Made by a program: the position numbers and the translations under genes. From assembly GCA_903916135.1 (NCBI GenBank), contig CAIWVT010000347.1:1-35259 (forward strand): 35,259 bases of DNA, given 5' to 3'. Positions within the stretch are counted from its first letter, which is position 1. Every line of letters begins with the position of its first letter. Below the pieces are notes generated by a model. That model made no database searches. It had not been told where the DNA came from and was given only the letters and a program-made list of their open reading frames with translations. The stretch is from an uncultured bacterium (GTDB lineage Bacteria > Bacteroidota > Bacteroidia > Bacteroidales > CAIWKO01). Positions 10,711-34,044 of the stretch are shown in pieces.

Positions 10711-10779
10711 AAAACTTTAAACTCTGAACTCCAAACTCTAAACCCTGAACTCAAAACTCTAAACTCTGAACTTGAAACC
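10711..10779. repeat. heptamer low-complexity tract
   Basis: Reads aaacttt aaactct gaactcc aaactct aaaccct gaactca aaactct aaactct gaacttg. About ten 7-bp words lie directly after the sufB stop. Confidence 0.8.
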
Positions 10780-12506: not shown

Positions 12507-12735
12507 TTGCAAACCTTATGACAGATTACGTCTAATTTTAAAAAATCAAGCAAGGTTTGTTAACAGATTAGGTCTGATTTTTTAAAATCATGCAGGGTTT
12601 GTTAACAGATTAGGTCTGATTTTTTAAAATCATGCAGGGTTTGTTAACAGATTAGGTCTGATTTTTTAAAATCATGCAAGGTTTGTCAACAGATTACGTC
12701 TGATTTTTTAAAATCACGCAAGGTTTGTCAAACAT
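12507..12735. repeat. 42-bp tandem array (4 good copies plus degenerate ends)
   Basis: The unit gcagggtttgttaacagattaggtctgattttttaaaatcat starts at 12549, 12591, 12633 and 12675, with a partial copy at 12717. The copies at 12591 and 12633 are identical. A degenerate copy starts near 12509. Confidence 0.9.
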
Positions 12736-13057
12736 CCAAATTGGATATTTTACATTTATTGTATGTTTGAATGTTGATAAAATATGCTTTTTAAGTATAT
12801 TTCTACATCAACATAATGGAATATCTTTCTCATAAAAAATAAACATAGATGAGGATTTAAACCTATACATATTTCAAAGAAATAAAACAATTGTATATCA
12901 ATGTGTTATATCTTTCTATAAAAATAAAATCCACCCAATTCAACGGTTCAGAAGTTTTTCGCTCCATAGCTCCTCTTCTCTATGCAAATAAAATAAATTT
13001 TTGGATTTGGAGCCGTATGCGTCCTGCAAACTTTAAGTACTCCAAACTTTAGGCACT

Positions 13058-14998
13058 TCACACTTCCTCTTTATACATATTTCGGTAGCGAACCGCATTG
13101 TCCAATGCATCCATGATCTCGCGTGTGAAACCCGCAGGCTGTTGCTCGGGAAATTCTGCTGTGGTTTCTGCGGTTGTGGCTATCACCTTGGGCATCGCTC
13201 GGTCGCAAATGTCGCGAATATGCTCTCTGTGGAAGTCGTCCATGCCTTCAAAGGTATCGCCAAAGCGGTCGCTGAAGTCGAGCATAGCGGCAACGATAGT
13301 TTTATAGATGATTTCTTTCTTGGGCGTATGACTGCGCACATGTTTGTAGGCTTCCGCCACCAAATGTTTGCCATTTTCGCGAATTTTCTCCGAAACGGGG
13401 ATGTCGCACGAATCCACTTTCACCTTTGTGGGATTGTCGCGCTCCCATTGTGCCATTTCGCGCGCCACTTTTGCATCATAAGCAGAGCGCTTACAATCAA
13501 TAATGAAAAAAGTGTACATATATACTATCTTCGGCATCAGAAACCCCAACTTTTTTTTATCGGTAGCGCGCAATATCTTAAAGAAAGTCTGCCGATCTTT
13601 CTTAGGGATTTTAAACATGAAGTACATAAACATACTTCCCATCATTTTTCGCATCGCCCAAAAGGAAGAAAACCCGGGAGGCTTAGCCATGGGAGTGTAA
13701 TTGATACCTTTTATATAGCCCAACGCACGTTCGAGAAACTTTTCATGCACATAAATCTTATCCCAATAGTCAGCCAACCCCTCAAACAGTTCGATGCGCG
13801 ACATATTTTTTGGAATTATATTGGTGATGATATCCATTTTGTCGCTCGCTTCCTCATGCTCGGTGGTCACCAGACGTCCTTGCCGTTTATAGTCATACCA
13901 CATCTTCGTGCCCGGAGGCGCTGCCAAAGTATGACATATATGGAAGATGATGTTTGCCTCTTGCACGAAATTCGCGGTCTTGTCGAACACCGTTTCGTCG
14001 TCAGAATCTGCGCCAATAATCATGTGAACCAACACCGCCATGCCATAGGACTGAATTTTCTTAATAGCCGCAGTTGCCGACACACCGATATTTTGCTTTT
14101 TGTTCATATCCTTCAGCGAATCATCGTTCACCGATTCAATTCCTATCATCAAGTTATAAAAATTGGCATCGGCTAACAGCTCCAACAGCTCATCGTCCTC
14201 TGCCACCGTGATATCCAATTGGGTAAAGAAGCCCATCGGCACTTTAAACGAGTTGTTTAACACAATTAACTGCCGCAAGAGATCTTTCACATACTTCCTA
14301 TCTCCCGCAAAATTATCATCTGCAATGAAAACCATCATCACTTTCAAATCATTCAACCTACGGATTTCTTCCAACACCTGTTCTATTGATTTGCTGCGCG
14401 GTTTTCGACCGTAAGTATAGATAACATCGCAAAAACTGCAGTCAAATGGACATCCGCGCGTGGTCTGAACCGAAACGGAATTGTAAGCGCAAATATCTTT
14501 CGCTATCAAATCCCAACGGGGGGGCGGAGTTTTGGTCATGTCGGGCTTCGAAACGTTTTTATACACCCGCTGATATGTGCCCGTCTTGTAATCCTCCAAA
14601 AATCTGCCCCAAGTGTCTTCCGCTTCGCCATGAAAAACCACATCAATGTCTTCCTTATTTTTATAGATGAGCGTCTCGACACCGATGCCGCCCACCACTA
14701 ATAATGATTTCGGACAAAATTTCTTACACAACTGTGCTATCTTCAAACTTCGTTGCAGTTGATTAGAAGTGATGCTCACCCCGATGATATCGTAGTCGGT
14801 CTCGGGCAAAAAATCATCCACCGGACCTTTCATGTATTCATCATGGAGCGTAACTTCGTGTTCCCGCGGAGTCAATGCTGCCACCGTGGCGATTGCATGA
14901 GGTGCCGTGAATGCTTTGGCAAACAGATAAGGAATTTGGCGAATAATCAAATTATCAATTTCGTCGGGCGAGCCGGGACTTATGAGGAGTATTTTCAT
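13058..14998 (-). CDS. B12-binding-domain radical SAM protein (class B, DUF4070-type C-terminus)
   Basis: 646 aa. The N-terminal Rossmann-like segment (MKILLISPG..., LLVVGGIG) is followed by the radical-SAM cluster motif TTRGCPFDCSFCDV and a long C-terminal extension. Confidence 0.85.
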   Translation of the reverse strand: MKILLISPGSPDEIDNLIIRQIPYLFAKAFTAPHAIATVAALTPREHEVTLHDEYMKGPVDDFLPETDYDIIGVSITSNQLQRSLKIAQLCKKFCPKSLLVVGGIGVETLIYKNKEDIDVVFHGEAEDTWGRFLEDYKTGTYQRVYKNVSKPDMTKTPPPRWDLIAKDICAYNSVSVQTTRGCPFDCSFCDVIYTYGRKPRSKSIEQVLEEIRRLNDLKVMMVFIADDNFAGDRKYVKDLLRQLIVLNNSFKVPMGFFTQLDITVAEDDELLELLADANFYNLMIGIESVNDDSLKDMNKKQNIGVSATAAIKKIQSYGMAVLVHMIIGADSDDETVFDKTANFVQEANIIFHICHTLAAPPGTKMWYDYKRQGRLVTTEHEEASDKMDIITNIIPKNMSRIELFEGLADYWDKIYVHEKFLERALGYIKGINYTPMAKPPGFSSFWAMRKMMGSMFMYFMFKIPKKDRQTFFKILRATDKKKLGFLMPKIVYMYTFFIIDCKRSAYDAKVAREMAQWERDNPTKVKVDSCDIPVSEKIRENGKHLVAEAYKHVRSHTPKKEIIYKTIVAAMLDFSDRFGDTFEGMDDFHREHIRDICDRAMPKVIATTAETTAEFPEQQPAGFTREIMDALDNAVRYRNMYKEEV

Positions 14999-17882: not shown

Positions 17883-18271
17883 TATAGCGGTTAAATAGTG
17901 AAATATAAAAGGTAACACACCAGTAAAAACGGGCAATTAGCTTCATATAGAGATTAACAAACTCTCTATAGACATGAATTTGTCCTCTATAGAGATTAAC
18001 GACCTCTTTATAGACATAAATTTGTCCTCTATAGAGATTAACGACCTCTTTATAGACATAGATTTGTCCTCTATAGAGATTAATGAGTCCTCTATAGAGA
18101 TTAACGACCTCTCTATAGCGGGCAATGAACCAATGATAGCGGGTAATGAGCTCTCTATAGCGGGCAACATCCTCTCTATAGCGGGCAAATAGGTTTATAT
18201 AGCGGGTAATTCATCAAATATAGCGGGCAACAAGCCATATATAGCGGGTAACGCACTACCACTATGTTTCC
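17883..18271. repeat. 21-bp tandem array A (18 in-register units) plus terminal unique 11 nt
   Basis: TATAG anchors fall at 17883 + 21n without a single slip. There are 3 degenerate units, then 8 units of type tataga[g/c]at..., then 7 units of type tatagcggg[c/t]aa.... The array ends in cgcactaccactatgtttcc. Confidence 0.93.
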
Positions 18272-18347
18272 AACAGTTTGTTACCAACGAATGATGTCCT
18301 AATCCAAAATCTCAAATCGTAAATAAGGAGTTACTATCTACATTTTT

Positions 18348-18379
18348 TTGTTTACGTATTGATATTATTAGTAATTTTG
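18348..18379 (+). promoter_or_regulatory. putative promoter for rarA
   Basis: TTG at 18348-18350, then 21 bp, then TAATTTTG (matches TAnnTTTG) at 18372-18379, 17 bp before the ATG. Confidence 0.3.
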
Positions 18380-18395
18380 GGCTTTAATTTGAGAT

Positions 18396-19670
18396 ATGAT
18401 ACGAAACGAACCTTTGGCGGAACAGATGAGACCTGCGAGTTTTGATGACTATATTGGTCAGCAGCATTTGATTGGACGGGAGGCGGTGCTGCGGAAGGCG
18501 ATTGAGGGGGGGACGCTGCCGTCGATGATTTTGTGGGGACCGCCGGGGGTGGGTAAGACGACGTTGGCGTTTATTGTTTCGCGGATGTTGGACCGCCCGT
18601 TTTATACGCTGAGCGCGGTGAATTCGGGGGTGAAGGACGTGAGGGCTGTGATTGAACAGGCGACGGCAGGACGGGAGAAGACGATTTTGTTTATTGATGA
18701 GATTCATCGGTTTAATAAAGGTCAGCAGGATTCGCTGCTGAGCGCGGTGGAGAAAGGGGTGATTACGCTGATAGGGGCGACAACTGAGAATCCGTCGTTT
18801 GAGGTGATTTCGCCGCTGTTGTCGCGCTGCCAAGTGTATATTTTGAAGAACCTGGATGAGGGGGAGCTGCTGAGGATTTTGGGGAAGGCGCAAGGGATTT
18901 TGGAGCAGGAGTTGGGACGCAAGATTGCGGTTGAGGAGAGCGAGGCGTTGATACGAGTGAGCGGCGGGGATGCGAGGAAGTTGTTGAATGCGTTTGAGTT
19001 GGTGGTGGATTCGCAACGGGGGGCTGAGGGGGAGATACGTATAGGGAATGGGTTGGTGATGGATGTGATTCAGCAGAATTTGGCGTTGTATGATAAGTTG
19101 GGGGAGCAGCATTATGATATTATTTCGGCGTTTATAAAGTCGATGCGGGGAAGCGACCCGAATGGGGCGGTGTATTGGTTGGCAAGGATGGTGGACGGGG
19201 GTGAGGATCCGAAGTTTATAGCGAGAAGGATGCTGATTTTGGCGTCGGAGGATATAGGGAACGCGAACCCCAATGCGCTGCTGTTGGCGACGAATTGTTT
19301 TCAGGCGGTGCAGATGATTGGATACCCGGAGTGTGAGTTGATTTTGTCGCAGACGGCGATTTATTTGGCGAGTTCGCCCAAGAGTAATGCGTCGCTGATG
19401 GCGATAAAAAATGCGCACGCGCAGATTAAGCAGAGCGGGAATTTGGCGGTGCCGTTGGCGCTGCGGAATTCACCGACGAAGTTGATGAAGGAGATAGGCT
19501 ACGGCAAGGCGTATAAGTATGCGCATGATTATGAGGATAATTTTGTGGCAGAGGAGTTTTTGCCGAAGGAAATAGCGGGGACGAAGTTTTATGAGCCTCA
19601 AGGGAATGCAAGGGAGAAGGAGTTGCGGGAGTTTTTGAAGAAGAGATGGGGGGGGAAGTATGGGTATTGA
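18396..19670 (+). CDS. rarA: replication-associated recombination protein A (AAA+ ATPase)
   Basis: 424 aa with LAEQMRPASFDDYIGQQHL, Walker A GPPGVGKTT, Walker B ILFIDEIHRFNK, and the C-terminal MgsA domain (ALYWLARM-like VYWLARMVDGGEDP). Confidence 0.92.
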   Translation: MIRNEPLAEQMRPASFDDYIGQQHLIGREAVLRKAIEGGTLPSMILWGPPGVGKTTLAFIVSRMLDRPFYTLSAVNSGVKDVRAVIEQATAGREKTILFIDEIHRFNKGQQDSLLSAVEKGVITLIGATTENPSFEVISPLLSRCQVYILKNLDEGELLRILGKAQGILEQELGRKIAVEESEALIRVSGGDARKLLNAFELVVDSQRGAEGEIRIGNGLVMDVIQQNLALYDKLGEQHYDIISAFIKSMRGSDPNGAVYWLARMVDGGEDPKFIARRMLILASEDIGNANPNALLLATNCFQAVQMIGYPECELILSQTAIYLASSPKSNASLMAIKNAHAQIKQSGNLAVPLALRNSPTKLMKEIGYGKAYKYAHDYEDNFVAEEFLPKEIAGTKFYEPQGNAREKELREFLKKRWGGKYGY

Positions 19671-19750
19671 GTTTTTTAGTTCGGAGTTCGGAGTTTAGAG
19701 TTCCGGAACACTACGAATTACGAATTTGCGAATTACTAATTACGCATTTT
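19671..19750. repeat. 7-8-bp low-complexity tract
   Basis: Reads ttagttcggagttcggagtttagagttccgg, then acgaattacgaatttgcgaattactaattacgcatt, immediately after the rarA stop. Confidence 0.75.
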
Positions 19751-19811
19751 ACAGTGTCAGGAAATAAGTTGAATGGTTTATTGAGTTGGGAATTAAATAT
19801 GAAAAGAGCGC

Positions 19812-19839
19812 TTGATATTATTTTCTTTGTGTATCTTTG
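19812..19839 (+). promoter_or_regulatory. putative promoter for the 19871 operon
   Basis: TTG at 19812-19814, then 17 bp, then TATCTTTG (matches TAnnTTTG) at 19832-19839. Confidence 0.3.
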
Positions 19840-19870
19840 TGGTCTTAATGGTTAAAAATTTTATGTTTCT

Positions 19871-21460
19871 ATGTGTTTAAGTGGTAAAATAAGGTGGTTT
19901 GTGTTGGCGGTGATTTTGGTTTTTGTTGTGGGAGGCTGCAAGAAAAAGGTGAGTCCGAGTTGGGATGTGGCGGTGTATGCTCCTTTGTTGGTGGCTGATT
20001 TGGGTTTTAATGATATAGTGCCTGATTCGCTGTTGGAGATGAACCCCGATAATTCGTTGAACTTGGTGTATAAGTATCAGTTTTATAATTTCTCGTTGGA
20101 TTCGTTGGTGAATTTTCCGGATACTATCTCACATAAGTATTTGCCACCCTTGGGCGGAGTGGTGTTGCATCCGGGACAGATATTTTTTAATTTTACGGAG
20201 AATTCAGTGCTGAATATTCCGAATGCAGATGTGGCGCAAGTGGATTTTCATAAGGGGTTTTTGGTGTTGGAGGTTTTTGCTACGATTACACAGCCATCAT
20301 ACGTTACCTATAAAATACCATACGCGCGGAAAAATGGGGTTGCTTTTCAGGTGACGGAGTTGATTCCGGCAGCACCTGTGGGAGGCACGACGCATGTGGA
20401 ACGGTTGGTGGATTTGTCGGGTTATAGTTTGGATATGAGAGGACCTACACACGTTAGTTCGAACATTTTGACGAATCAAACGATAGCGCAATTGGACGCG
20501 AATGCGGATACGGTTACGATGACGAATGCAGATATTTTTAATTTTAATGTGCGGTTCGAGGATTTGTCGTTTGCATACGCGAAAGGGTATTTCGGTAGTC
20601 AATATACGGTTTTTGGACCTGACACTACGAAGATTGATATGTTTAATAACATCGTGGCGGGTTCGTTTAATTTGGAGAGTGCAAAACTGACCTTGTCGGT
20701 GGAGAATGGCTTTGGGATAGATGCAAGGGTGATGTTTAATAGTATTGCCACGACGAATTCGCAGACGGGTTTAACAACAGCACTTTCGGACCCAATAATT
20801 GGACAGACGATAAATATATCGAGGGCTACGGAGACGTTTAATCCGCTGCAACCTGTGAATCCATCGGTGTATAATTTTGAAATGAATAGCTCTAATATAC
20901 CACAAATTATAGAGAATATGCCTGACAAGATTTCGTATAAAATGCAGGTGACTACGAATCCGTTGGGGAATGTTTCGGCAGGGAACGATTTCATTTATTA
21001 TGGAAATTATTTGAATGCTTCGCTGAATTTGGAGATTCCGTTGTCGTTTATAGCGAACGATTTGACCTTGTCGGAAGATGTGGTGTTAGATTTGGGAACG
21101 TATAACGATAATCCGTCGTCGGGGAAGTTGAAGTTGATTGTGGATAATGGGTTTCCGTTTAGTGCCGATGTGCAGATATATATGTTGGATGCTAATAATC
21201 AAATCAGTGATTCGCTGTTTGTGCCGACTTTGATAGATGCGCCGATGTTAGATGCGGATTATAAAGTGATAAGTCCAAAGCGTTCGGAATTGGAAGTGTG
21301 GTTGTCAGAGAGTAAATATTTGGCATTGTTCAGCACGAAAAAAGTTAGGGTAAAGGCGCGTTTCAACACGGCAGGCGTAAGCAATTTCGTTAAAATCTAT
21401 AGCTATTATAGGCTTAAGTTGAAAGTTACCGGGGATTTTAATTATTTGGTGGAGATGTAG
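19871..21460 (+). CDS. hypothetical lipoprotein (529 aa)
   Basis: Lipoprotein signal with a lipobox-like VVGGC. Beta-rich throughout. The stop lies 5 bp before the next gene. Confidence 0.7.
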   Translation: MCLSGKIRWFVLAVILVFVVGGCKKKVSPSWDVAVYAPLLVADLGFNDIVPDSLLEMNPDNSLNLVYKYQFYNFSLDSLVNFPDTISHKYLPPLGGVVLHPGQIFFNFTENSVLNIPNADVAQVDFHKGFLVLEVFATITQPSYVTYKIPYARKNGVAFQVTELIPAAPVGGTTHVERLVDLSGYSLDMRGPTHVSSNILTNQTIAQLDANADTVTMTNADIFNFNVRFEDLSFAYAKGYFGSQYTVFGPDTTKIDMFNNIVAGSFNLESAKLTLSVENGFGIDARVMFNSIATTNSQTGLTTALSDPIIGQTINISRATETFNPLQPVNPSVYNFEMNSSNIPQIIENMPDKISYKMQVTTNPLGNVSAGNDFIYYGNYLNASLNLEIPLSFIANDLTLSEDVVLDLGTYNDNPSSGKLKLIVDNGFPFSADVQIYMLDANNQISDSLFVPTLIDAPMLDADYKVISPKRSELEVWLSESKYLALFSTKKVRVKARFNTAGVSNFVKIYSYYRLKLKVTGDFNYLVEM

Positions 21461-21465
21461 ATTGT

Positions 21466-22791
21466 ATGAAGAAGCGTTTCATCAAATACACACTCCTATC
21501 CATAAGTTTGCTCATCGCAGAACTTATTGGGACGCCTGCCTTTGGGCAGTATAAATTTACGTATTGTCCCTTAGGAACCTCAGCACCTATGGTGGCTTCG
21601 GAGCATGAAAGCTATCAGGCGATAGATTATCAAAAGATTTATCTTGACTTGACATCCGAGTTATATATGAATTCTAATGGGTTGACGAATCAGTTTGTGA
21701 GCAAGTTCTATTATGGAAGTTTTTTGGATACGCCACTCAAGACACAGAATTGGAATAGGCTTAACGGTCAACATAATCTGCTTGGCTATTTCTTTAACAG
21801 CAGTTTGCGCCTTAATGTTCCTGCAAAAAAGAACGGGTTTAGTTATTATGCTGCATACGAAAACCATAATATGATGGAAGTGAAATTCCATGAAGACTTT
21901 TTTCATCTCATCTTCTTTGGAAATAGAGATTTGGCGGGGCAGTCGGCAACATTCGACAAGCAATCGTTCAAAACGATGAGCTATCAACAATTCAAAGTGG
22001 GTGTGGTAAAAACGTGGTTTAAACAATCGAAAGTTCAGGTTTTTTCTGCAGGATTGGGTTTTAATAATGGTCAGAGTTTGATGGAGTATTCTATTCCGTC
22101 AGCTTCTTTTTTCACACAGGAGAATGCGGAATATCTTTCCTTAGATATGAATGTGAATATGCGACGTTCGGATACTGTTAGGACAAAATTTGGTGCGGAA
22201 AATGGTGCAGGAATGTGTTTGGATTTGTCATTTTATCAACGCAATCCAAAAAGTTCGATTGAAGTTAAAGTGGAAGACCTTGGGTTTATACGTTGGAATA
22301 ACCATTCTCAACAGTATAAAAAGGATACTTTGGTATATTTTGAAGGTATTGAAATTAAAGATATCTTCGATTTGAATTCGGCTACCAACACAGGACTCAC
22401 GCAGGACAGCATCATGAATGAGTTTGCTTTTGGCGATCAATCTGCTTTCACCGAAATGATTCCGATGAGAGCTTCGGTGAATTATACGCATTATTTCTTC
22501 AATAACAGATTGTCGCTGTCGCTGACTTTGATTCATTATCATTTTTTACATTTCAATCCTTTGATTCGATTTGTTCCTACGTATGTCATTTCTATAAAGA
22601 AGTCGAGTATCTGTATCGCACCCAATTTTGAGTACGGGGGTTATGGCAAATTTAATTGTGGGCTTGGTATTTCGGCATCTGTAAAACAGAAATTCTATAT
22701 AGAATTGAGCACGGCTTTCATCAACTCCTATTTGGATGCTAAGAAAGCAGCGGGTTTGGGTGGATTTGTTTCTATAATTAAAACTTTGTAA
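21466..22791 (+). CDS. hypothetical secreted, probably outer-membrane beta-rich protein (441 aa)
   Basis: Signal peptide MKKRFIKYTLLSISLLIAELIGTPAFGQ. Alternating aromatic/polar strand-like segments run to the C-terminus. Tightly coupled to both neighbouring genes. Confidence 0.65.
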   Translation: MKKRFIKYTLLSISLLIAELIGTPAFGQYKFTYCPLGTSAPMVASEHESYQAIDYQKIYLDLTSELYMNSNGLTNQFVSKFYYGSFLDTPLKTQNWNRLNGQHNLLGYFFNSSLRLNVPAKKNGFSYYAAYENHNMMEVKFHEDFFHLIFFGNRDLAGQSATFDKQSFKTMSYQQFKVGVVKTWFKQSKVQVFSAGLGFNNGQSLMEYSIPSASFFTQENAEYLSLDMNVNMRRSDTVRTKFGAENGAGMCLDLSFYQRNPKSSIEVKVEDLGFIRWNNHSQQYKKDTLVYFEGIEIKDIFDLNSATNTGLTQDSIMNEFAFGDQSAFTEMIPMRASVNYTHYFFNNRLSLSLTLIHYHFLHFNPLIRFVPTYVISIKKSSICIAPNFEYGGYGKFNCGLGISASVKQKFYIELSTAFINSYLDAKKAAGLGGFVSIIKTL

Positions 22792-22792
22792 G

Positions 22793-24280
22793 ATGAAAAA
22801 GTCATTACTCTTTTCTTTTTTAACTTTATGTAGTTTAATGTGTCTGCAATATACTATAAAGGCGCAATCTGTAAAGTTTAATCACACCTATGGCAGCATG
22901 GCTTATAACTTCGGCAAACGCATAATTGAAACCAGCGATCGCGGATTTTATATGATGGGTAATGTTAGTGCTGTTTCGGGCAATACCAACATCAGTATCA
23001 TCAAAACCGATTCCTTGGGAATCATTCTATCCGAAAAAATTATTGGTGATGCTTCTCTTTACTGGGCAAACGACTTTATTCGAACTTCCGACAAGGGATA
23101 TCTTATTAGCGGTTTCACCAACAAACATCCAGAAAATGGCTACGACATGTTGTTGATAAAGACAGATTCTAACATCAATATTGAATGGGAGCGCTACTAT
23201 GGTGGCAGCGATTGGGATATTGCGAATGCAGTTGTCGAAACTAAAGACAACGCCTACCTAATGGTGGGGCAAACCTATTCCTATGGTGCTGCAAATGGAA
23301 ATATCTATATTGTCAAAACCAATTATCTTGGTGATACGCTATGGACGCGAACTTTCGGTGGCGATAGTGCAGATTATGCCATGTCTGCTGACGTTCTTTT
23401 TGATAGCACGTATCTCATAGGAGCAACCACCAAGAGTTTTGGATTTGGAGATTATGATGCTTATGTTATCAACCTCAATAAAAACGGAGATACAATATGG
23501 ACAAAAAATTACGGGCAAGACAAAGAAGACATTATTTACTCAATAAAGCAATCCCCCGACTCGGGTTTTGTATTTGTCGGTTCCACCACAAGTTATAATG
23601 CTATTGGGCTTGAAACTTGGTTGATGAAGTTTGATAAAAACCGTAATTATATTTGGAAATTGCCCGAATTCTGGGATATTAAAAATGGCGATCAACTTGC
23701 ATACAATATTAATTTTACCGATTCTGCACATTTTTTGATTACCGGTTATACAACAGCCCTTAATGGCTCTAAAGATTTATCTTTGATTATCATGAGGGAT
23801 TTTGCAAATTTTAAATTCAGCATTACATCCAGTTCATTATTTGATGACGCTGGTTATCAGGCAATACAAACTGCCGATAAAGGCTTTGCTATCGTTGGTT
23901 ATACCGAAGGGTTTGGAACAGCTTTATCCAACTTTTTTGTCGTCAAGATAGGAAATGATTGCAGCTATTCAACTACGTATGAACATATCCTTGATGTTGA
24001 AGAACCTCCGATTGTATCAGAAAATGATTTATTTGGTATTTACCCTAATATCTCTGAAGGGAAATATAATATCAATCTTAAAGAAAGCAACAGCAAGCAA
24101 AACTATGATATTTCGGTTATTAATGTTGTCGGGCAGGAAATATTCAGAGGCAAGTGGGAAACTTCCTTAGGCGACATTTATAAAATAGACATATCAAATG
24201 CTGCTGATGGGATGTATTTCGTTACCGTTGCATCATTCGAAATAAAAAGCAGTTTTATGCTTGTTAAGAGCAGCAAATAA
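22793..24280 (+). CDS. secreted repeat (beta-propeller-like) protein with T9SS C-terminal sorting domain
   Basis: Signal peptide present. At least 6 repeats of the pattern D.GY...G.T.S.G (SDRGFYMMGN, SDKGYLISGFT, KDNAYLMVGQTYSYG, DSTYLIGATTKSFG, DSGFVFVGSTTSY, DKGFAIVGYTEGFG). The C-terminal ~80 aa IYPNISEGKYNINL...VINVVGQEI...IDISNAADGMYFVTV match the type A Por secretion tail pattern. Confidence 0.8.
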   Translation: MKKSLLFSFLTLCSLMCLQYTIKAQSVKFNHTYGSMAYNFGKRIIETSDRGFYMMGNVSAVSGNTNISIIKTDSLGIILSEKIIGDASLYWANDFIRTSDKGYLISGFTNKHPENGYDMLLIKTDSNINIEWERYYGGSDWDIANAVVETKDNAYLMVGQTYSYGAANGNIYIVKTNYLGDTLWTRTFGGDSADYAMSADVLFDSTYLIGATTKSFGFGDYDAYVINLNKNGDTIWTKNYGQDKEDIIYSIKQSPDSGFVFVGSTTSYNAIGLETWLMKFDKNRNYIWKLPEFWDIKNGDQLAYNINFTDSAHFLITGYTTALNGSKDLSLIIMRDFANFKFSITSSSLFDDAGYQAIQTADKGFAIVGYTEGFGTALSNFFVVKIGNDCSYSTTYEHILDVEEPPIVSENDLFGIYPNISEGKYNINLKESNSKQNYDISVINVVGQEIFRGKWETSLGDIYKIDISNAADGMYFVTVASFEIKSSFMLVKSSK

Positions 24281-24315
24281 TTCGTTTTTATATATAATTT
24301 CGATAAATTTTTTAA

Positions 24316-25605
24316 GTGAAAAAAAACAAATTCATAACAATATTTGTGTGGCTATTGATAACTGCACTTTTCATTTTTCTAACATTAAACAAACATTCGC
24401 GTTCTGGAATATTTAATTATCATAGCGAAATTTGGGCTGATAAAGCCGGATATTATGTCTATCTCCCATTGACTTTCATCTATCATTTTGATGCAAGCTC
24501 TTTTCCCGATTCTATTACTGACAAAATTGGTGGTGGTTTTATAATTGACACCATCAACAATGTCGTCAAAACAAAATGCAATTATGGTGTAGCATTATTG
24601 CAGGCTCCTTTTTTTCTTATTGTTCATTTTATAGCAAAACCCCTTGGCTATCCCGATAATGGATTCTCTATGCCATATAACCGCTCCATTGATTTTGCTG
24701 CTGTATTCTACTTAGTAATGGGGTTGTTTTTTCTGTGGAAATATCTAAACAAACGTTTTAGTAAAAAGTTAAGTTTCTTTGCACTATTCTTTTTAATCGC
24801 TGCTACCAACCTGTATTATTATGCAATTGACGAAACAGGAATGTCGCACATTTATTCCTTTGCAATTTTTGCAACATTAATATGGTTGATTGATTTTTTT
24901 GACTTAAAAAAGCAAACGCACCTACTTTTATTATCACTGTTATTTGCCTTATTAATAGTCGTGCGACCTATTAATATAATTTTTATTTTGTTCCTAATCC
25001 TTCTCCAAAAAGACAAACTAAAACTTTGGCTTTCTGATTTCAAAAAAATTAAACCTCAAAAAACTATTATTGTATTACTACCGGCAATGCTAATAATTTC
25101 CTTACAGTTCTTCTATTGGAAATATGCATCAGGAAATTATTTCTCATACTCTTATAAAGGAGAATCTTTTACCAACCTATTTAATCCTCAGATATTCAAG
25201 GTGTGGTTTTCCACACAAAACGGACTATTTATCTACACTCCAATTTGGTTATTTATAATAATAGGTATAGGTAAGATGATTTTTGACAAACAAAAGAACG
25301 GCTGGATGTATCTATCGCTCTTTTTTGTTTTAAGTTACATAATTGCTTCTTGGTGGAGTTGGTCAATGGGATGCGGTTTCGGAAACCGCGCTTATGTTGA
25401 ATACCTAACGATTTTCATCACACCTGCCATCTTCTTATGGAAAAAAATAGCTACTTCTAAAATACTTTCATATAGTATCATTTGCCTATTTGTGTTATGT
25501 GCAATTTATAACCTTCAACTAACGTATGCTTGGGATGGTTGTTGGTATGGAGGTATATGGGATTGGCAGCTTTTGTGGCAAAAGTTTTTATCAACTTTCA
25601 ATTAG
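24316..25605 (+). CDS. polytopic membrane protein, possibly GT-C (ArnT/PMT-like) glycosyltransferase
   Basis: GTG start, 429 aa, at least 10 hydrophobic helices with aromatic-rich loops. The functional call rests on topology and composition only. Confidence 0.5.
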   Translation: MKKNKFITIFVWLLITALFIFLTLNKHSRSGIFNYHSEIWADKAGYYVYLPLTFIYHFDASSFPDSITDKIGGGFIIDTINNVVKTKCNYGVALLQAPFFLIVHFIAKPLGYPDNGFSMPYNRSIDFAAVFYLVMGLFFLWKYLNKRFSKKLSFFALFFLIAATNLYYYAIDETGMSHIYSFAIFATLIWLIDFFDLKKQTHLLLLSLLFALLIVVRPINIIFILFLILLQKDKLKLWLSDFKKIKPQKTIIVLLPAMLIISLQFFYWKYASGNYFSYSYKGESFTNLFNPQIFKVWFSTQNGLFIYTPIWLFIIIGIGKMIFDKQKNGWMYLSLFFVLSYIIASWWSWSMGCGFGNRAYVEYLTIFITPAIFLWKKIATSKILSYSIICLFVLCAIYNLQLTYAWDGCWYGGIWDWQLLWQKFLSTFN

Positions 25606-25623
25606 CAATTTGAATAATCCATC

Positions 25624-26262
25624 CTATTCCTTCCCCTTATACACCCTCTCCCCTGCCAAAATCTCCACCGCCAAATGATTCTCCGCAGGCGGAATCGGAC
25701 ACGAATACTTCGGATTATGATAACAGCACGATGGATTAAAAGCCTTATTAAAATCTATAACCAACTCATCGCCCACCGGAATCTTCAACTCCAAAAACCT
25801 TCCACCTCCATACGTCTGTTTGCCGTTTGTCAAATCCTTAAATGGCAAAAACAAATCATCCTTATACTGCGCATCGTTTATAAGTTTCATATATTGATAC
25901 ACATTCAACTTACACACCTTGCCGTTCAACCAAAAAGTCGCCTCCCCATACTTCCTATACGTGCCCGTATTGCCCTTTGAACGTGGCATTTCAAAAGGCA
26001 CTTCGTTTGGCGTCAGCACTAATTTCGCCACCACCCGATATTTCAACTTTATCTTAAAAAAAGCTATCTTCTTAAACGTCTTCAAACCTTCTTTCGTCAA
26101 CGGACTCTCCGCGCTATCAGCAAACTCCTTATTCATATCGGTTCTATAACTCTCATTATCCTTCACAATTTCCTTCTTCACACTTTGACCAAAAACACAA
26201 TAGCCATTTGCACCAAAAATCATAAGAACAAATGCCAACAACACATAATAAATATACCTCAT
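25624..26262 (-). CDS. DUF1684 domain-containing protein
   Basis: Signal peptide plus the hallmark C-terminal region TNGKQTYGGGRFLEL...IDFNKAFNPSCCYHNPKYSCPIPPAENHLAVEILAGE. Confidence 0.85.
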   Translation of the reverse strand: MRYIYYVLLAFVLMIFGANGYCVFGQSVKKEIVKDNESYRTDMNKEFADSAESPLTKEGLKTFKKIAFFKIKLKYRVVAKLVLTPNEVPFEMPRSKGNTGTYRKYGEATFWLNGKVCKLNVYQYMKLINDAQYKDDLFLPFKDLTNGKQTYGGGRFLELKIPVGDELVIDFNKAFNPSCCYHNPKYSCPIPPAENHLAVEILAGERVYKGKE

Positions 26263-26371
26263 AATCTATTTTTTTTCAAAAATACACAATATTCTCATAC
26301 CAAACATTATTTTCTATCAAATAATTATTCAAGAAATCGTACTTTTGTAAAATCTTGAACATTCAACATAG

Positions 26372-27400
26372 ATGAAACCAACTTCCAACTCTAAAAATAG
26401 CAACCAATATCTTTCATCCGCCTATGCATTCATCAAACGTTTCGGGCTTGATGGATTCATCCTTGCACTGATGAGCATGATTCTGCTCGCATATTTCTTT
26501 CCTCACCTTGGCTCCAAAGATTCCCCTGTACCCCTCTCTGCCATTGCCAACTACGGCGTTTCGCTCATATTCTTCTTCTACGGATTGCGCCTCAGTCCAC
26601 AAAAGCTCCTTGCGGGCATCGCCAATTGGCGCTTACATTTGCTTATCCACAGTGCCACCTTTCTCGTCTTTCCCCTTTTGGTCATCGCGGCGCGCTTGCT
26701 CATCGGCAACGTCATCAACGACCTCATTTGGCTCGGAATTTTCTTCCTCGCATGTCTCCCTTCCACGGTCTCATCCTCCGTCGTCATGGTCTCAATTGCG
26801 CGCGGCAACATTCCGGCAGCCATCTTCAACGCCAGCATCTCCACGCTAATCGGAGTATTCATCACCCCGCTTTGGATGGGCATCTTCATGAACTCCTCCA
26901 CCCAATCGCTCGACCTCCTCCCCATCATACTCAAACTAACTCTTCAGGTGCTCCTACCCGTCATCCTTGGCATCCTACTACATTCCAAATGTGGCGCATT
27001 TGCCGAACGCCACCGCAAACAACTACGCTATTTCGACCAATCCATCATCCTACTCATTGTCTTCACCGCCTTTTGCGAATCCTTTGCCCAGCGCATGTTT
27101 CAGGGCTATTCCCTGCTCTTTCTCATCCTCTTGGGAGTCGCCTTATGCGTGCTGTTCTATCTGGTCTATGGCATCATATACCTCACCTCCAAACTCCTCA
27201 AATTTAACCGCGAAGACAAAATCACAGCCATGTTTTGCGGCTCCAAAAAATCCCTTGTCCACGGCACCGTCATGTCCAAAATCCTCTTCGCCCACAGCCC
27301 CTATATCGGCATCATCCTGCTGCCCATCATGATGTATCACGCCCTGCAGCTCATTATGGTCTCCATCATCGCACAAAGGATGGCGAGGAGGAAGGTATGA
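26372..27400 (+). CDS. bile acid:sodium symporter (BASS/YfeH-like) family transporter
   Basis: 342 aa, about 9-10 TM helices. The LDGFILALMSMILLAYFFPHLG start and CLPSTVSSSVVM motif are typical of the YfeH/BASS group. Confidence 0.8.
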   Translation: MKPTSNSKNSNQYLSSAYAFIKRFGLDGFILALMSMILLAYFFPHLGSKDSPVPLSAIANYGVSLIFFFYGLRLSPQKLLAGIANWRLHLLIHSATFLVFPLLVIAARLLIGNVINDLIWLGIFFLACLPSTVSSSVVMVSIARGNIPAAIFNASISTLIGVFITPLWMGIFMNSSTQSLDLLPIILKLTLQVLLPVILGILLHSKCGAFAERHRKQLRYFDQSIILLIVFTAFCESFAQRMFQGYSLLFLILLGVALCVLFYLVYGIIYLTSKLLKFNREDKITAMFCGSKKSLVHGTVMSKILFAHSPYIGIILLPIMMYHALQLIMVSIIAQRMARRKV

Positions 27401-27491
27401 AGTACTTAAAGTGCCTAAAGTACTTCAAGTATTTAATGTACTTAGTGAATTGTGATGGGTTATTTTAGAATGTTATTTATAGCAAAGCTCG

Positions 27492-27763
27492 GGAAACATA
27501 GTGGTAGTGCGTTACCCGCTAAAAAGAGGAAGTTGCCCGCTAAAAAAAGGAAGTTGCCCGCTACAGAGAGGAAGTTGCCCGCTACAGAGAGGAAGTTGCC
27601 CGCTACATAAACCTATTTGCCCGCTACAGAGAGGAAGTTGCCCGCTAAAAATAGCAAATTGCCCGCTACAGTGAGGAGGTTGCCCGCTACAGAGAGCTAA
27701 TTACCCGCTGTCAATTGCTTGTTGCCCGCTAAAGAGAGGAAGTTGCCTGATGTTGTGATTATA
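27492..27763. repeat. 21-bp tandem array B (11 good units plus 1 degenerate), an inverted copy of the CGGGCAA part of array A
   Basis: Units tt[g/a]cccgcta + 11 nt start at 27512 + 21n. The array is preceded by ggaaacatagtggtagtgcg. Positions 27492-27521 are the exact reverse complement of 18242-18271. Confidence 0.93.
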
Positions 27764-27852
27764 ATGGAGTGAGTTTGTATCTTATATCTGATGCTATGCA
27801 AAAGTCCGAAGGACTGAAATTATTGTAGAAAATTATTAAGATAGACCTATAT

Positions 27853-27949
27853 AAAATCCCGAAGGGATGAAATTATAATGTCACCCATTCTGGGTTTTAT
27901 CATTATCTGAATTCTGTGTTCTATAATATTATCATCCCTTCGGGATTTT
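27853..27949. repeat. inverted-repeat pair built on tccc-gaa-ggga hairpins
   Basis: The sequence aaaatcccgaagggatgaaattataat (27853-27879) pairs with ataatattatcatcccttcgggatttt (about 27924-27949) as an imperfect inverted repeat about 45 bp apart. A related agtccgaaggactgaaattat lies at 27803-27823. Confidence 0.7.
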
Positions 27950-27970
27950 AGCATAATGTGTAACATCAGT

Positions 27971-28329
27971 TATAAAGAGATGAAAAAGCTCTCTATAGAC
28001 ATGAATGAGCTCTCTATAGAAATGAATTTGTTCTCTATAGACATGAATGAGCTCTCTATAGAGATGAATTTGTCCTTTATAGACATGAATGAGCTCTCTA
28101 TAGAGATGAATTTGCCCTCTTTAGACATTAATGAGCTCTCTATAGAGATGAATTTGTTCTCTATAGACATTAATGAGCTCTCTATAGAGATTAATATGTT
28201 CTCTATAGAGATGAATGAGCCATTTATAGACATTAATGAGCTATTTATAGAGATGAATTTGCAATTTATAGAGATGAATTTGTCATTTATAGAGATGAAT
28301 TTGTCCTCTATAGCGTTCTATAAATTCTC
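27971..28329. repeat. 21-bp tandem array C (16 in-register units plus 1 offset partial unit)
   Basis: TATAG anchors fall at 27994 + 21n up to 28309. Units alternate between tatagaCatgaatGAGCTCtc and tatagaGatgaatTTGTyCtc, giving a 42-bp super-period. The core ctctatagag is a 10-bp palindrome. Confidence 0.93.
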
Positions 28330-28540
28330 CAAACAGCCTATTGACCACTTTACAGCCAAAAACATGCTTTTTTATATATTTTATGCTCAATAATTAGTAT
28401 TTATAGCTTAAAACTTAATATTTAAACCTTAAAACTTGATATTTTAGGTCACAAATCACCAACTTTAGGAAATGGATAGGAAATTCTTAGTGCCTCTTAG
28501 TGCTCTTAGTGCCTCAGTGGTTTCTTTTATAAATCAAAAA

Positions 28541-29422
28541 TCAACAAATCAACCGCAACGAACTCGGCACAACCTTCACTTCAAGCTCTTTGCCCAAGTC
28601 AATTTCGTCGCCATCTATGTGGGCGATGTTGTTTTTTTGTTGGATGATGCGCGCGTCGGTGGTTTTGAAGATGCGGATGAAGGGTGTTTTGTGGGCTAAA
28701 CCCACGAAGATAAACGGAATCACGAAAGCGGCATAATAGATAAGCGGTTTGCGGATGATACATAGGTTGAGCAAGCCGTCGTCTATGATGGAAGTGGGCG
28801 AAATGCGCGTGTTGAAGCCAAATTGGTCTGAGTTTGCCACGCATATCATAAAGGATTTTGTTTTGATGATGCGTTCGTTCACATAAATCTTGAAACGCTT
28901 GGGGTTGTAGCGAATATATTCCATGAAAGCTATCTTGGCATAAGACCAAAAGCCGCGCGTTTTGACCTGCGAGAAGCGTTCGGCGACATAAGCATCGAAG
29001 CCCACGCCTGCAATACTGACAAAGACGCGCCCGTTGATGGTGCCCGTGTCTATGGTTTTCACCTGATAGCGATTGATGAGCAGCAAAGCCTTGCGCACAT
29101 TGAGGGAAATCTTCATGAAACGCGCCAAACCATTGCCGGAACCTGCGGGAATGATGCCCATGGCGGTTTGGGTGTGAAGCAAAGCCTGCGCGACCTCGTT
29201 GACGGTGCCATCGCCGCCCACGGCAATGACGGCAGCGTAGCCCATCTGAGCCGCCTCACGACTCAACTCAATGGCATGAGCCTTGGCTTGGGTGTAGCAG
29301 ATTTCGTAATCGAAGGCAGCCTTGTCCAAATGGGTTTCGATGCGGCGCTCGACAATCTTTTGCTTGCCAATGCCCGATTTGGGATTGATGATGAAGCGTA
29401 TTTTGCGGGGCGGGTTACTCAT
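28541..29422 (-). CDS. YegS/BmrU-type diacylglycerol-kinase-family lipid kinase
   Basis: Contains KIRFIINPKSG, AVGGDGTVNEV and IIPAGSGNGLAR. The true start is the Met at 29422 (MSNPPRKIRF), which overlaps the upstream stop by 8 bp (ATGAGTAA). The longer ORF-track N-terminus is an out-of-frame overlap with the LtaS gene. Confidence 0.85.
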   Translation of the reverse strand: MSNPPRKIRFIINPKSGIGKQKIVERRIETHLDKAAFDYEICYTQAKAHAIELSREAAQMGYAAVIAVGGDGTVNEVAQALLHTQTAMGIIPAGSGNGLARFMKISLNVRKALLLINRYQVKTIDTGTINGRVFVSIAGVGFDAYVAERFSQVKTRGFWSYAKIAFMEYIRYNPKRFKIYVNERIIKTKSFMICVANSDQFGFNTRISPTSIIDDGLLNLCIIRKPLIYYAAFVIPFIFVGLAHKTPFIRIFKTTDARIIQQKNNIAHIDGDEIDLGKELEVKVVPSSLRLIC

Positions 29423-30911
29423 GGGTGTCGCTGAGTTTGTTTTGGAGCATGCGTTGGTTGTAGGCTTGGATGAGCGCTTTGGTAAACTGCTCCAATTCGT
29501 GCGCCTTGGCGACATTGGATAGGAGGAGATTGTTTTGAAGGAGGCGGTCGTTGGTGATGTCATACAAGGCGGTGGCTTTTTCGCCATTGAATTGGAGCAC
29601 ATAGCCGTCTTTGATGAGTTGATAGGAGCTGTTGAGATAGCTGATGGCAAAATGGGGCGCAGCGGAGTCGAAAACACTGCTTCCGAAGGCTACATATTTA
29701 TCTTTATAGTGAACAAAATCGAGCAGGGAAGGCAATATGTCGGCTTGTTGGGTGATGGTTTTGTTGATGCCTTGCATTTGGGGGTTGTTGTGCATATAAT
29801 AAATGATGGGAATGGCGTAGGTGCCCAAATTATTTTGATAATAGGAGTTGTAAGCCAAGGAAGAATGGTCGGCAGTGATGACAAATAGGGTGGAATCGAA
29901 CCATGGAAGGTGTTCGCAGGTGTGGAAAAACTCCTTCAAGGCGTGGTCGGTGTAGCCAATGCTCTCGTGAATCTCTAAAGTTCCTTTGGGGAATTGGTTT
30001 TTATACTTAGGCGGGATGGTGTAGGGATGATGGGACGACAATGTGAAGATGGTGGAGAAGAAAGGTGGTTTGGTTTTGGTCATAGTGTTGGCGGCATATT
30101 GAAGAAACTCCTCGTCGTAGATACCCCATTTGCCATCAAAATCTTTATCATTGTTGTATTCGTTTTTGCCATAGTAGGCATCGAAGCCTGCCATCTTGGC
30201 ATAAGCATCGAAGTTCATGGTTCCGTTTTTTCCGCCGTGATAAAAGGCAGAGGTGTAGCCTTCATGTTTCAAAACAAGCGGTAAGGAATTGACTTTGTTG
30301 CCCGAAAACATGGAAGTGATGTAGGCATCGTTCATCAAAGAAGGCAAACCTGAAGCGACGGAAGGGATGCCTTCGATGGAACGTTTTCCATTGGAGAAAG
30401 CATGCTCCATAACCATACTATGTTGGATTAAAGAATCGAGAAAGGGGGTGTAGCCTTTATAGTTGCCATTGCCAATATCGTGATTGAGGGAGCCGATATA
30501 TTCGCGGGAAAGGCTTTCGACAATAATAATAATGATGTTGAGATGGCGGAAGCTTTCGCCTGAAGAAACATTGTTTTGAACGATAGGGTTGAAGATGTTG
30601 CGTGCTTTGACATTCGAAAAATATTTTCTGTCATCTAAGCTTTTCATCTCGATGGTACTGAAGATGGAGAAAGGCGTGTTTACAAGCAGGGGAGCGTTTT
30701 GCGGATTGGTGTATTCGCCAGCATTAATCATACTCAGCGGTCGCAAACGGAATCCACCACGAGCGATAAAAAGCGAAGAACCCATAATTAAAATAAACCA
30801 TAAGAGGCTCAAAAGAAAATGCTTCACGGTTTTGATTTGCGTATGCTTTACTTGTTTTGTTTTTCTATAGAGAAATACCATGGAGACAATAAAAGCTGCG
30901 GCAATTACCAC
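29415..30911 (-). CDS. LTA-synthase/sulfatase-family protein, catalytic part (fragment of an interrupted gene)
   Basis: Alkaline-phosphatase-superfamily motifs are present (IIIIVESLSREY, SNGKRSIEGIPS, TADHS). In frame with 30927..31355 across a single TAA. Confidence 0.8.
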   Translation of the reverse strand: MVIAAAFIVSMVFLYRKTKQVKHTQIKTVKHFLLSLLWFILIMGSSLFIARGGFRLRPLSMINAGEYTNPQNAPLLVNTPFSIFSTIEMKSLDDRKYFSNVKARNIFNPIVQNNVSSGESFRHLNIIIIIVESLSREYIGSLNHDIGNGNYKGYTPFLDSLIQHSMVMEHAFSNGKRSIEGIPSVASGLPSLMNDAYITSMFSGNKVNSLPLVLKHEGYTSAFYHGGKNGTMNFDAYAKMAGFDAYYGKNEYNNDKDFDGKWGIYDEEFLQYAANTMTKTKPPFFSTIFTLSSHHPYTIPPKYKNQFPKGTLEIHESIGYTDHALKEFFHTCEHLPWFDSTLFVITADHSSLAYNSYYQNNLGTYAIPIIYYMHNNPQMQGINKTITQQADILPSLLDFVHYKDKYVAFGSSVFDSAAPHFAISYLNSSYQLIKDGYVLQFNGEKATALYDITNDRLLQNNLLLSNVAKAHELEQFTKALIQAYNQRMLQNKLSDTHE

Positions 30912-30926
30912 AACATACCAATAGTC

Positions 30927-31355
30927 TTATAAATAATTCCAAAACAAGGATTGTAAGTCATCGCCAATGATGGAGCCTTTGATGACATCAAAGGTGGTTC
31001 GGCGGAAGATGAATCGAAAGAAGACCAAATCAACGCAGTTGAAGATGATGCCGATAGTGTTAGTTACATAAAACACTATTTCTGCCACTAATTGATACCA
31101 TCTTTTCTCTCTGAAATTAATCGGAAGGGTTTGCATTATGATGAACAATGCGTTGATATATATAATTGCGGAAGCGTCGAAGAGCAAACCGAAAAATAAT
31201 ATCTTACACAAATCAACGCCAGTGATGGCTCCAAAGGTTCCTATATTCAGAAAATAAAACAGTAAGCGCAGGACAGTGTAAAGGAACATTACTATGCCAA
31301 GCCTTTTTAATAAAGTGCTATAAATTGTATTTGTGATTCGAAATCGTTGCATCAT
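30927..31355 (-). CDS. LTA-synthase-family N-terminal membrane domain (fragment of an interrupted gene)
   Basis: 142 aa with 4-5 TM helices, as found at the N-terminus of ~640-aa LtaS-family proteins. Ends at the TAA at 30927-30929, and the same frame continues DYWYVVVIAAAF.... Confidence 0.7.
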   Translation of the reverse strand: MMQRFRITNTIYSTLLKRLGIVMFLYTVLRLLFYFLNIGTFGAITGVDLCKILFFGLLFDASAIIYINALFIIMQTLPINFREKRWYQLVAEIVFYVTNTIGIIFNCVDLVFFRFIFRRTTFDVIKGSIIGDDLQSLFWNYL

Positions 31356-31419
31356 TGTGCAAAAATAATGAATATCGCTTTATTAATAAGAAAAAAAAAT
31401 ACTTTATGCTGGATTTGAA

Positions 31420-31737: not shown

Positions 31738-31770
31738 GGCGAATAAAATTTATTTTTACAAATTAAAATA

Positions 31771-34032: not shown

Positions 34033-34044
34033 AATAAAATTATT

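Follow-up and report, generated by a model that had tools for sequence, protein, structure and literature searches.

The stretch of DNA analysed here (the window: 35,259 nucleotides of contig CAIWVT010000347.1, assembly GCA_903916135.1) is a chromosomal contig from an uncultured member of the Bacteroidales. It carries type IX secretion system (T9SS) sorting domains, DUF5723 and DUF1573, its closest named RarA homologues come from Bacteroidales metagenome-assembled genomes (MAGs), and its source metagenomes were sampled from boreal lakes. The subject of the analysis is array A, a tandem repeat of 21-bp units that lies between a 129-amino-acid (aa) Zn-ribbon membrane open reading frame (ORF) upstream and the rarA/mgsA gene downstream. 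Array A is non-coding and belongs, as one copy among several, to a family of modular, interspersed tandem repeats that is restricted to its lineage and found in a few uncultured freshwater Bacteroidales. Sliced at 17883 + 21n, the array falls into 18 units in one register with zero indels, and the register table divides it as follows.

17883 to 17945, plus strand: three decayed units resembling type 2 (TATAGCGGTTAA, TATAAAAGGTAA and AAAAACGGGCAA)
17946 to 18113, plus strand: eight type-1 units forming four 42-bp dimers, with the core (C)TCTATAGA[G/C]AT.AA and the palindrome CTCTATAGAG inside it
18114 to 18260, plus strand: seven type-2 units, each TATAGCGGG[C/T]AA followed by a 9-nt spacer
18246 to 18271, plus strand: the end signature GGGTAACGCACTACCACTATGTTTCC, at which the array stops sharply and which terminates every clade-1 copy of the family

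An earlier note, made from the letters of the window alone, had described indel-free TATAG anchors at this spacing and a composition of three decayed, eight type-1 and seven type-2 units, and the slicing and the register table bear out both statements. All 15 occurrences of TATAG between 17700 and 18400 fall at phase 0 (the remaining three unit starts are TATAA, AAAAA and GATAG), and the array was recovered independently by Tandem Repeats Finder at periods of 21, 42 and 63. The palindromic core of the ctctatagag type that the note had reported is also present: CTCTATAGAG is a perfect palindrome, exact in four of the eight type-1 units, whose consensus start in array A is TATAGA[G/C]AT[T/G/A]AA. 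The note was equally right that conservation is concentrated in the first ~12 nt of a unit and that the last ~9 nt vary, as deviations from the unit consensus number 7 (type 1) and 4 (type 2) in positions 1-12, compared with 25 and 30, respectively, in the final 9. Two 12-mers, allowing at most two mismatches, occur 27 and 46 times in the whole window versus 4.1 and 3.1 times in shuffles (a 7- to 15-fold excess). In another assembly of this species (L147, 99.9% identical), array A is gap-free and of unchanged length. A candidate Bacteroidetes-type rarA promoter (TTTG, 21 nt, TAATTTTG), spotted by eye within 18272-18395 at ~22 nt before the ATG, lies downstream of the array and is not part of it, so that the array would stand upstream of the rarA promoter and not within it; a scan for sigma-70-type promoters gave matches at or below the chance level.

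The note had gone on to describe two different cores joined in phase, and here the comparison of units leads elsewhere. The two unit types agree at 15 of 21 positions (p<0.001 versus shuffles), with TATAG, AAC and CCTCTC common to both and the main difference confined to CGGGC in type 2 versus AGATT in type 1. The type-1 block of array A is a 42-bp higher-order repeat (identity 0.69 at lag 42 versus 0.59 at lag 21). Type 1 is thus a diverged type-2 unit that gained the palindrome and was amplified as 42-bp dimers inside an older array, and such amplification of whole units accounts for the in-phase adjacency of the two types. The perfect register follows mainly from whole-unit growth.

Both unit types recur at a second locus (27492-28306), a recurrence that the earlier note had overlooked.

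27492 to 27733, minus strand: array B1, 11 type-2 units closed by the end signature seen in array A, to which B1 is inverted
27750 to 27975, minus strand: a leader module of ~225 bp, part of the canonical element, with two hairpins, one long (AAATCCCGAAGGGATGA...TCATCCCTTCGGGATTT) and one short with a T run after it (AGTCCTTCGGACTTTTG)
27971 to 28306, plus strand: array B2, 16 type-1 units (TCTATAGA[G/C]ATGAAT...) in the orientation of the type-1 block of array A

The end signature of array B1 faces the 3' end of the SBF transporter gene, and that of array A is identical to it over 30 bases (27492-27521, minus strand). The type-1 units of B2 and A agree at 34 of 42 positions, the type-1 blocks of both are flanked by decayed type-2-like units, and downstream of B2 decayed units of TATAGC type continue to about 28444. 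The leader, which is absent from array A, contains cUUCGg-type hairpins with terminator-like matches, and a search of it against Rfam gave nothing beyond sub-threshold matches to long hairpins of a generic kind (e.g., miRNA precursors). Between 27848 and 27950 its long inverted repeat of ~100 bp (AAATCCCGAAGGGATGA...TCATCCCTTCGGGATTT) surrounds a small ACCCAGAATGGGT hairpin, giving it the look of a miniature inverted-repeat transposable element (MITE).

A scan for TAGCGGGYAA-N11-TAGCGGGYAA in one genome per species, together with a metagenome scan, revealed copies of the family outside the window in at least four related MAGs. The clade-1 relatives are two loci in bin-6511 (L004 and L012), one in a Kiruna bin (L022) and one from the metagenome scan (L067, among the matches listed), and the clade-2 relatives (L024, L011 and L081) are built from the unit AAATATAG[C/T]GGGCAATTnnnn. 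Two further matches from the genome scan (L021, from Parendozoicomonas, and L018) were judged to be due to chance, and a looser metagenome pattern yielded, among the matches listed, mostly chance hits or unrelated 21-bp and 7-bp arrays. The window, bin-6511 and bin-7433 each hold two loci, all of them intergenic, and the other copies have unrelated housekeeping genes as neighbours (amine oxidase, LysM protein, GMP synthase, tricorn protease, porin, and D-Ala-D-Ala dipeptidase). Alignment of four clade-1 copies gives the same succession of leader, type-2 array and end signature within differing flanks. The shared end signature is GGGTAACGCACTACCAYT..GTTTC, with 20-29 bases of identity between array A and L004, L012, L022 and L067, and the clade-2 arrays terminate in the related signature GGGYAACGCGTCTRYCAAGCCTTTC. 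The unit variants of the four aligned copies also recur in a set order (...CAACAWGCAATTGA, GTAATTAGCTCT, CAACCTCCTC, CAATTWGCTAT, CAACTTCCTCTC, CAAATAGGTTTA, (CAACTTCCTC)n, GTAACGCAC...), which array A matches in part (e.g., ...CAACATCCTCTC then CAAATAGGTTTA); because this order is common to different loci and genomes, the arrays are copies of one another.

Within this common plan the modules vary. The leader is 81-88% identical in L004, L012 and L022 despite their differing flanks, and in L012 the 5' arm of its inverted repeat is missing and 21-bp units stand in its place. Array A and L067 share a leaderless variant of the architecture in which type 1 stands directly ahead of type 2, with four type-1 dimers in array A and one in L067. 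The arrays contain up to 22 units and are polar, with a decaying 5' end (at other loci as in array A) and an abrupt 3' end at the conserved signature, which faces the 3' end of a convergent gene at five of six independent loci. Neither terminal inverted repeats nor a consistent target-site duplication were found at the aligned element boundaries, and no transposase was found in the window. Literature searches found no description of this repeat family.

Sequence constraint in the family is concentrated in one part of the unit. Across 119 units from nine arrays, the core TAG[C/T]GGG[C/T]AA carries ~2 bits per position and the spacers 0-0.9 bits, so that a near-invariant GC-rich core of 10-12 bp (TAG[C/T]GGG[C/T]AA[C]) alternates with a spacer of 9-10 bp that differs between units. 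The 21-bp spacing is kept in 60 of 60 intervals in clade 1, and clade 2 has five 20-bp exceptions among 49. When homologous units are compared from copy to copy, the core TAGYGGGYAA differs at 12/650 positions (1.8%) and the spacers at 142/799 (17.8%); the core has thus changed about 10 times more slowly than the spacer, which indicates strong site-specific selection on the core. Both the core and the end signature are kept across two clades whose spacers have fully diverged. Array B1 is 93-94% identical to the paralogous copies L004 and L022 and 85% identical to its positional orthologue L012, so whole copies must have been exchanged or have spread after the species split; when the window is compared with bin-6511, identity at four-fold-degenerate sites is only 58-62% in the SBF and ASL genes that flank the arrays. 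As a single strand, a type-1 dimer (42 nt) can form a regular 10-bp hairpin, and type-1 dimers, like an array at 12521-12752 described below, have folding z-scores of -3.5 to -3.9 relative to arrays of shuffled units. Single strands of type 2 show no structure beyond chance (z of 0 to +1.9), which favours recognition of this unit as duplex DNA or as a linear motif.

The two loci of the window also mark the ends of a rearranged block.

18371 to 27400, no strand: the 9-kb rarA-to-SBF block, bracketed by inverted type-2 arrays and delimited by gene orders and tblastx blocks

In four relatives (L149, with 80% RarA identity, and L153, L155 and the P0010 contig, with about 75-77%), the gene order is Ig-like genes, sulfatase and DAGK (all on the plus strand), a T9SS-sorted protein, and then rarA (plus) onwards. 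In the window, the rarA-SBF block (18371-27400) is collinear with these relatives, and the DAGK-sulfatase-Ig segment (28547-35097) is inverted and placed after SBF. The type-2 arrays of loci A and B are inverted copies whose end signatures both face the rarA-SBF block, and one inversion of this 9-kb block, with arrays A and B as its ends, explains the order in the window relative to the four relatives. Recombination between the inverted copies would be the simplest mechanism. Both junctions are found in an independent 31-kb contig of the same species, and the longest identical stretch between A and B1 is 30 bp, which makes an assembly artefact unlikely. In bin-6511 the order is SBF, then the element, then ASL. 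GC skew across the window, which was considered for dating the inversion, is dominated by individual genes; the DUF1684 gene (minus) and the SBF-like transporter gene (plus) at 25624-27400 have extreme values of -0.46 and -0.33, the SBF gene has 50% GC versus 39% for the window, and this stretch contains many long overlapping ORFs on both strands.

Taken together, these observations make it very likely that array A represents a dispersed repeat family that is non-coding, is constrained in its core and has copies where an inversion ends. A fuller explanation, in which the core of this family is in addition a protein-recognition site, seems to us evenly poised between right and wrong. The core would be a reiterated site for a sequence-specific DNA-binding protein encoded elsewhere in the genome, a factor specific for TAGCGGGCAA multimers, and the two-turn spacing would place all sites on one face of the helix and so permit cooperative binding as a phased oligomer. 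The arrays would expand and contract by unequal exchange or slippage in unit register, with phase-breaking indels being purged, and the dispersed copies would act as substrates for homologous recombination, leading to inversion and to sequence exchange between copies. A role in local chromosome organisation, as a transcriptional roadblock or as an intergenic insulator would be likelier than one in replication or partition. The part of the earlier note that described a layout of reiterated sites therefore stands (i.e., conserved core, variable spacer and strict two-turn spacing, to which the core constraint can be added), but its picture of an iteron, centromere or operator array gives way to that of a dispersed family.

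Several observations weigh against the protein-recognition explanation. Since the GC core is missing from the type-1 units, these are not expected to be bound by the same protein. The low core divergence could stem in part from homogenisation within arrays, although conversion tracts should homogenise the spacers too. In a wedge model, whose outcome we regard as uninformative, the curvature of the arrays is not above that of random-21-mer arrays, though it is above that of shuffled sequence. The identity of 93-94% between copies could mean recent selfish spread rather than a host function, and the orientation of the signature towards the 3' end of a convergent gene at five of six loci also fits a role at the RNA level in the 3' untranslated region (UTR). 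For the inversion, the crossover point is not locatable, and the gene order to the left of array A demands additional rearrangements.

The family could instead be selfish or neutral satellite-like DNA without a host function, non-autonomous in the manner of MITE or BOX elements and spread by a transposase or recombinase encoded elsewhere or by recombination, an alternative that we regard as possible but rather unlikely. Slippage would then expand the arrays, and the 21-bp period would merely be inherited from the founder unit. Dispersal beside unrelated genes is consistent with such an origin, as are an identity between species and loci that does not track positional orthology and far exceeds the ~60% at four-fold sites, the presence, absence or sequence replacement of arrays at the same locus among close relatives, and the variation of one 42-bp array by a unit between assemblies of the same species. 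The long MITE-like hairpin of the leader points the same way, and the mosaic of modules resembles that of BOX and NIME elements (PMC3049150). However, a core constraint 10 times that of the spacer and the complete lack of indels in 60 intervals are unexpected for neutral DNA, the terminal inverted repeats, target-site duplications and transposase looked for in the copies and the window were not found, and the end signature and core have outlasted the divergence of the spacers between the two clades. Since the core could be needed to mobilise a selfish element, its constraint merely weakens this alternative. The arrays might also act at the RNA level in a REP/BIME-like manner; once transcribed, they would in most cases form the 3' UTR of the convergent gene upstream and serve as a stabiliser, roadblock or terminator, or as a multi-copy motif sponge for an RNA-binding protein or small RNA. 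An array lies directly 3' of a gene end, in uniform relative orientation, at five of six independent loci; the interval from the SBF stop to B1 contains no terminator, and a hairpin with a T run lies beyond B1 in that direction; and regular hairpins occur in the type-1 dimers and the 12521-12752 array, as do those of cUUCGg type in the leader. An RNA-level role is nevertheless judged unlikely, because the type-2 arrays, which are the conserved part, are unstructured beyond chance, the orientation bias is not significant (7/64, about 0.11), array A sits upstream of rarA and outside any 3' UTR, and strict 21-bp spacing has no obvious meaning in RNA. Nor does any known structured RNA family account for the arrays: a search of the window against Rfam 15 produced no hit at gathering score, the E-value threshold brought up nothing real, and around both loci the matches were confined to generic hairpins below threshold.

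An origin of the arrays as the iterons, centromere or operators of a replicon or partition system (e.g., in an integrated plasmid or phage remnant) would fit the period and core pattern confirmed here, as plasmid iterons and ParR-type centromeres are built of tandem direct repeats of 21-22 bp with a conserved core. This origin is highly improbable and already largely refuted. Pfam scans of 30 ORFs found no rep, par, integrase, phage, cas or regulator gene in the 35-kb window, in agreement with the earlier note on the absence of rep, par and regulator genes nearby, and ParA, ParB and ParR domains are lacking both in the window and next to the other copies. Plasmid or phage origin was rejected because blastn of the arrays against 72,556 plasmids and 50,697 phages was blank and two pattern scans of viral contigs gave just chance or coding matches (a 101-bp repeat and a giant-virus coding repeat); the surrounding housekeeping synteny is moreover conserved in relatives, and several copies occupy unrelated intergenic regions of a chromosome. 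That the arrays encode a protein with seven-residue repeats (21 bp being 7 codons) is scarcely credible. The period is a multiple of 3, ORFs are open at 17974-18192 (72 aa) and 27956-28393 (145 aa), and a public pipeline predicted genes on the arrays with products of 72 aa and 137 aa. Yet each of the six frames of array A contains at least three stops, nearly all frames of the type-2 copies contain stops, the open frame is not conserved from copy to copy, and the 72-aa ORF terminates within the array. The variation is concentrated in one 9-nt block without a 3-nt periodicity, the array ORFs have no Pfam match, and the 72-aa ORF has zero homologues among 5.8 billion proteins (in a search whose filters may have hidden low-complexity matches); a coding origin was rejected on these grounds. 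A genome-wide word such as Chi or an uptake sequence was also considered, as the core contains AGCGG, which we take to resemble AddAB-type Chi sites, and was rejected for the window, where AGCGG occurs 17 and 17 times outside the arrays versus 18.9 and 17.4 expected. Five additional CGGGCAAC matches outside the arrays are all intragenic.

The window contains two further arrays that are unrelated in sequence to those of loci A and B.

3838 to 4083, no strand: array of 5.8 units with a 42-bp period (TATGGATGAAAAATACATTTTCCATTGAATCTAGTTAACCAA), in an AT-rich 1.5-kb gap before an ORF at 4347
12521 to 12752, no strand: array of five units with a 42-bp period, at the ASL/radical-SAM (rSAM) synteny junction, without similarity to the TATAG unit

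The unit of the 12521-12752 array (ACAGATTAGGTCTGATTTTTTAAAATCATGCAGGGTTTGTTA) has an internal palindrome (GATTTTTTAAAATC), and the array lies between convergent ASL and radical-SAM genes; the second assembly of the same species has exactly one unit fewer (L147, 4168-4336). Contigs of the same species end at arrays (e.g., L163 at 3838-4083), and the 3838-4083 array is unbent in the wedge model. In the closest of the four relatives (L149, 9411-9842; also L150-L152), ~160 bp upstream of rarA, there is a 21/42/104-bp array of ~20 units with the core GTGCGAACCNTTTCC, on which a pipeline called an 84-aa ORF. Despite its equivalent position, this array has no detectable similarity to the TATAG units, and the relatives at ~75% have no array upstream of rarA. 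Tandem arrays are present at all four synteny junctions visible in the window (SufB/ASL, ASL/rSAM, Zn-ribbon/rarA, and SBF/DAGK). Unrelated loci totalling 820 kb contain 33 arrays that span at least 100 bp; three of these have a minimal period of 63 bp, and a minimal period of 21 or 42 bp is found in none. Since this sample is small and partly biased by its collection, the excess of the period in the lineage is suggestive only.

A 21/42-bp period could be a rule of the lineage, with unrelated arrays each combining a conserved core and a variable spacer under a dedicated array-building or array-binding system, but we consider this doubtful. Such a system might consist of a protein family that forms filaments or wraps DNA, or of recombination enzymes that assemble on phased sites. 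It would organise or rearrange the chromosome and could be seen as the equivalent, in bacteria, of satellite or centromere-like chromatin or of sites of programmed rearrangement. If the sharing of the 21/42-bp period holds in complete genomes, it would suggest that tandem DNA in bacteria is constrained by its geometry and not by its sequence, for which we know of no precedent.

Other short repeats were observed in the window. The 145-bp SufB-ASL spacer, a junction at which the gene order departs from that of the relatives, holds a heptamer array (AAACTCT, 8.7 copies, 10711-10772) with a higher-order period of 21 bp. Tandem motifs of 9-10 nt (AAGTACTTA/AAGTGCCTA, GCACTAAGA) follow directly after the stops of the SBF, radical-SAM and DAGK genes (27400-27444, 13027-13065, and 28485-28515); after SBF, an ATGA overlap starts a 23-codon ORF (MKYLKCLKYFKYLMYLVNCDGLF), and the same motif follows SBF in bin-6511 (L012, about 1560-1620). 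At 32424-32680, motifs of 8-9 nt (TTGAGTTAA/TAGTTAAT) are interleaved with a hairpin module of ~44-53 bp (CCCGACACTGAGTGTACGGGACAGG) that recurs at 92% identity in L067 (374-411) and is therefore another dispersed element. The reverse complement of the short motif (TTAACTCAA) resembles the TAACTGA heptamers of an earlier study (PMC4679880). A 33-bp (11-codon) repeat in a small ORF beside the Ig-like cluster (35011-35145) is conserved in two relatives (L149, 915-1010 and 1413-1542; L155, 1990-2106) and, in contrast to the arrays between genes, is probably a genuine coding repeat.

Small interspersed repeats (e.g., REP/BIME, BOX, STAR, and NIME) have been described in a handful of cultured model groups, and for the majority no function has been proven. 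The family described here offers three clear signals (a two-turn register, a 10-fold constraint on a core of ~10 bp, and copies at the ends of an inverted 9-kb block), which together make a testable case for phased protein-recognition arrays that also drive genome rearrangement. In practical terms, the arrays fragment short-read assemblies of the lineage and give rise to spurious gene calls.

Comparison with known systems places the family among these interspersed repeats. Iterons (e.g., of R6K, P1, F, and pSC101) and ParR-type centromeres (parC) are tandem direct repeats of ~20-22 bp with a conserved core that is bound cooperatively on one face of the helix, and each adjoins its own rep or par gene, with one or two such arrays on a replicon. 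The arrays share with them an indel-free period of about two turns (21 bp) and the conserved core, but differ in having no rep or par gene, a chromosomal housekeeping context, numerous dispersed copies, and arrays that reach 22 units. Like CRISPR arrays, they alternate a repeat with a variable spacer and have one degenerate and one defined end. However, CRISPR repeats measure ~23-50 bp and have unique spacers of similar length, whereas here a 12-nt core alternates with 9-nt spacers that are mutually related and stand in the same order in other copies; furthermore, cas genes are absent both from the 35-kb window and from the flanks of the other copies. The arrays are not CRISPR. In REP/REPIN-RAYT systems, palindromes of 20-40 bp form inverted pairs together with a single-copy RAYT gene, and only the type-1 dimers of the present family can form a hairpin, the type-2 units not being palindromic. 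The TAACTGA heptamer repeats of Beggiatoaceae, Cyanobacteria and a few Bacteroidetes are 7-nt units without spacers that stand mostly just upstream of start codons (PMC4679880). They too are tandem direct repeats that abound between genes in certain lineages only, show no evident means of spreading and have been proposed as factor-binding sites, but the units described here are composite 21-mers located mostly past the 3' ends of genes.

In its working the family resembles BOX and STAR elements without appearing to belong to either, and in architecture it resembles plasmid iterons. BOX elements of Streptococcus have the composition boxA-boxB(n)-boxC, with a boxB of 45 bp, and the whole element forms a stem-loop with terminal inverted repeats (PMC3049150). 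As in BOX (and in BIME and NIME), the element is intergenic and modular, running from a unique 5' module through tandem internal modules of varying number to a defined 3' module; it gives rise to spurious ORFs, and copy number varies between copies. The present family differs in its 21-bp units, its unfolded type 2, the lack of a terminal inverted repeat or target duplication at the boundaries aligned, and the lack of a candidate insertion sequence partner. The STAR element of Staphylococcus aureus has a 14-mer core, T(G/A/T)TGTTG(G/T)GGCCC(C/A), with spacers of at least 40 bp (PMC3532100). Both STAR and the family described here reiterate a short GC-rich core with spacers at many intergenic loci of an AT-rich genome, bear a signature at one end, and expand and contract locally while their sequence is kept. 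Here, however, the core is 10-12 bp (TAGYGGGYAA), the spacer is 9-10 bp, and the period is strictly 21 bp, there is no sequence similarity to STAR, and the host belongs to another phylum; and whereas STAR spacers are locus-specific, whole arrays including their spacers are common here to different loci and species. The family is therefore STAR-like in its working and, as its sequence departs from the STAR consensus, distinct from STAR itself.

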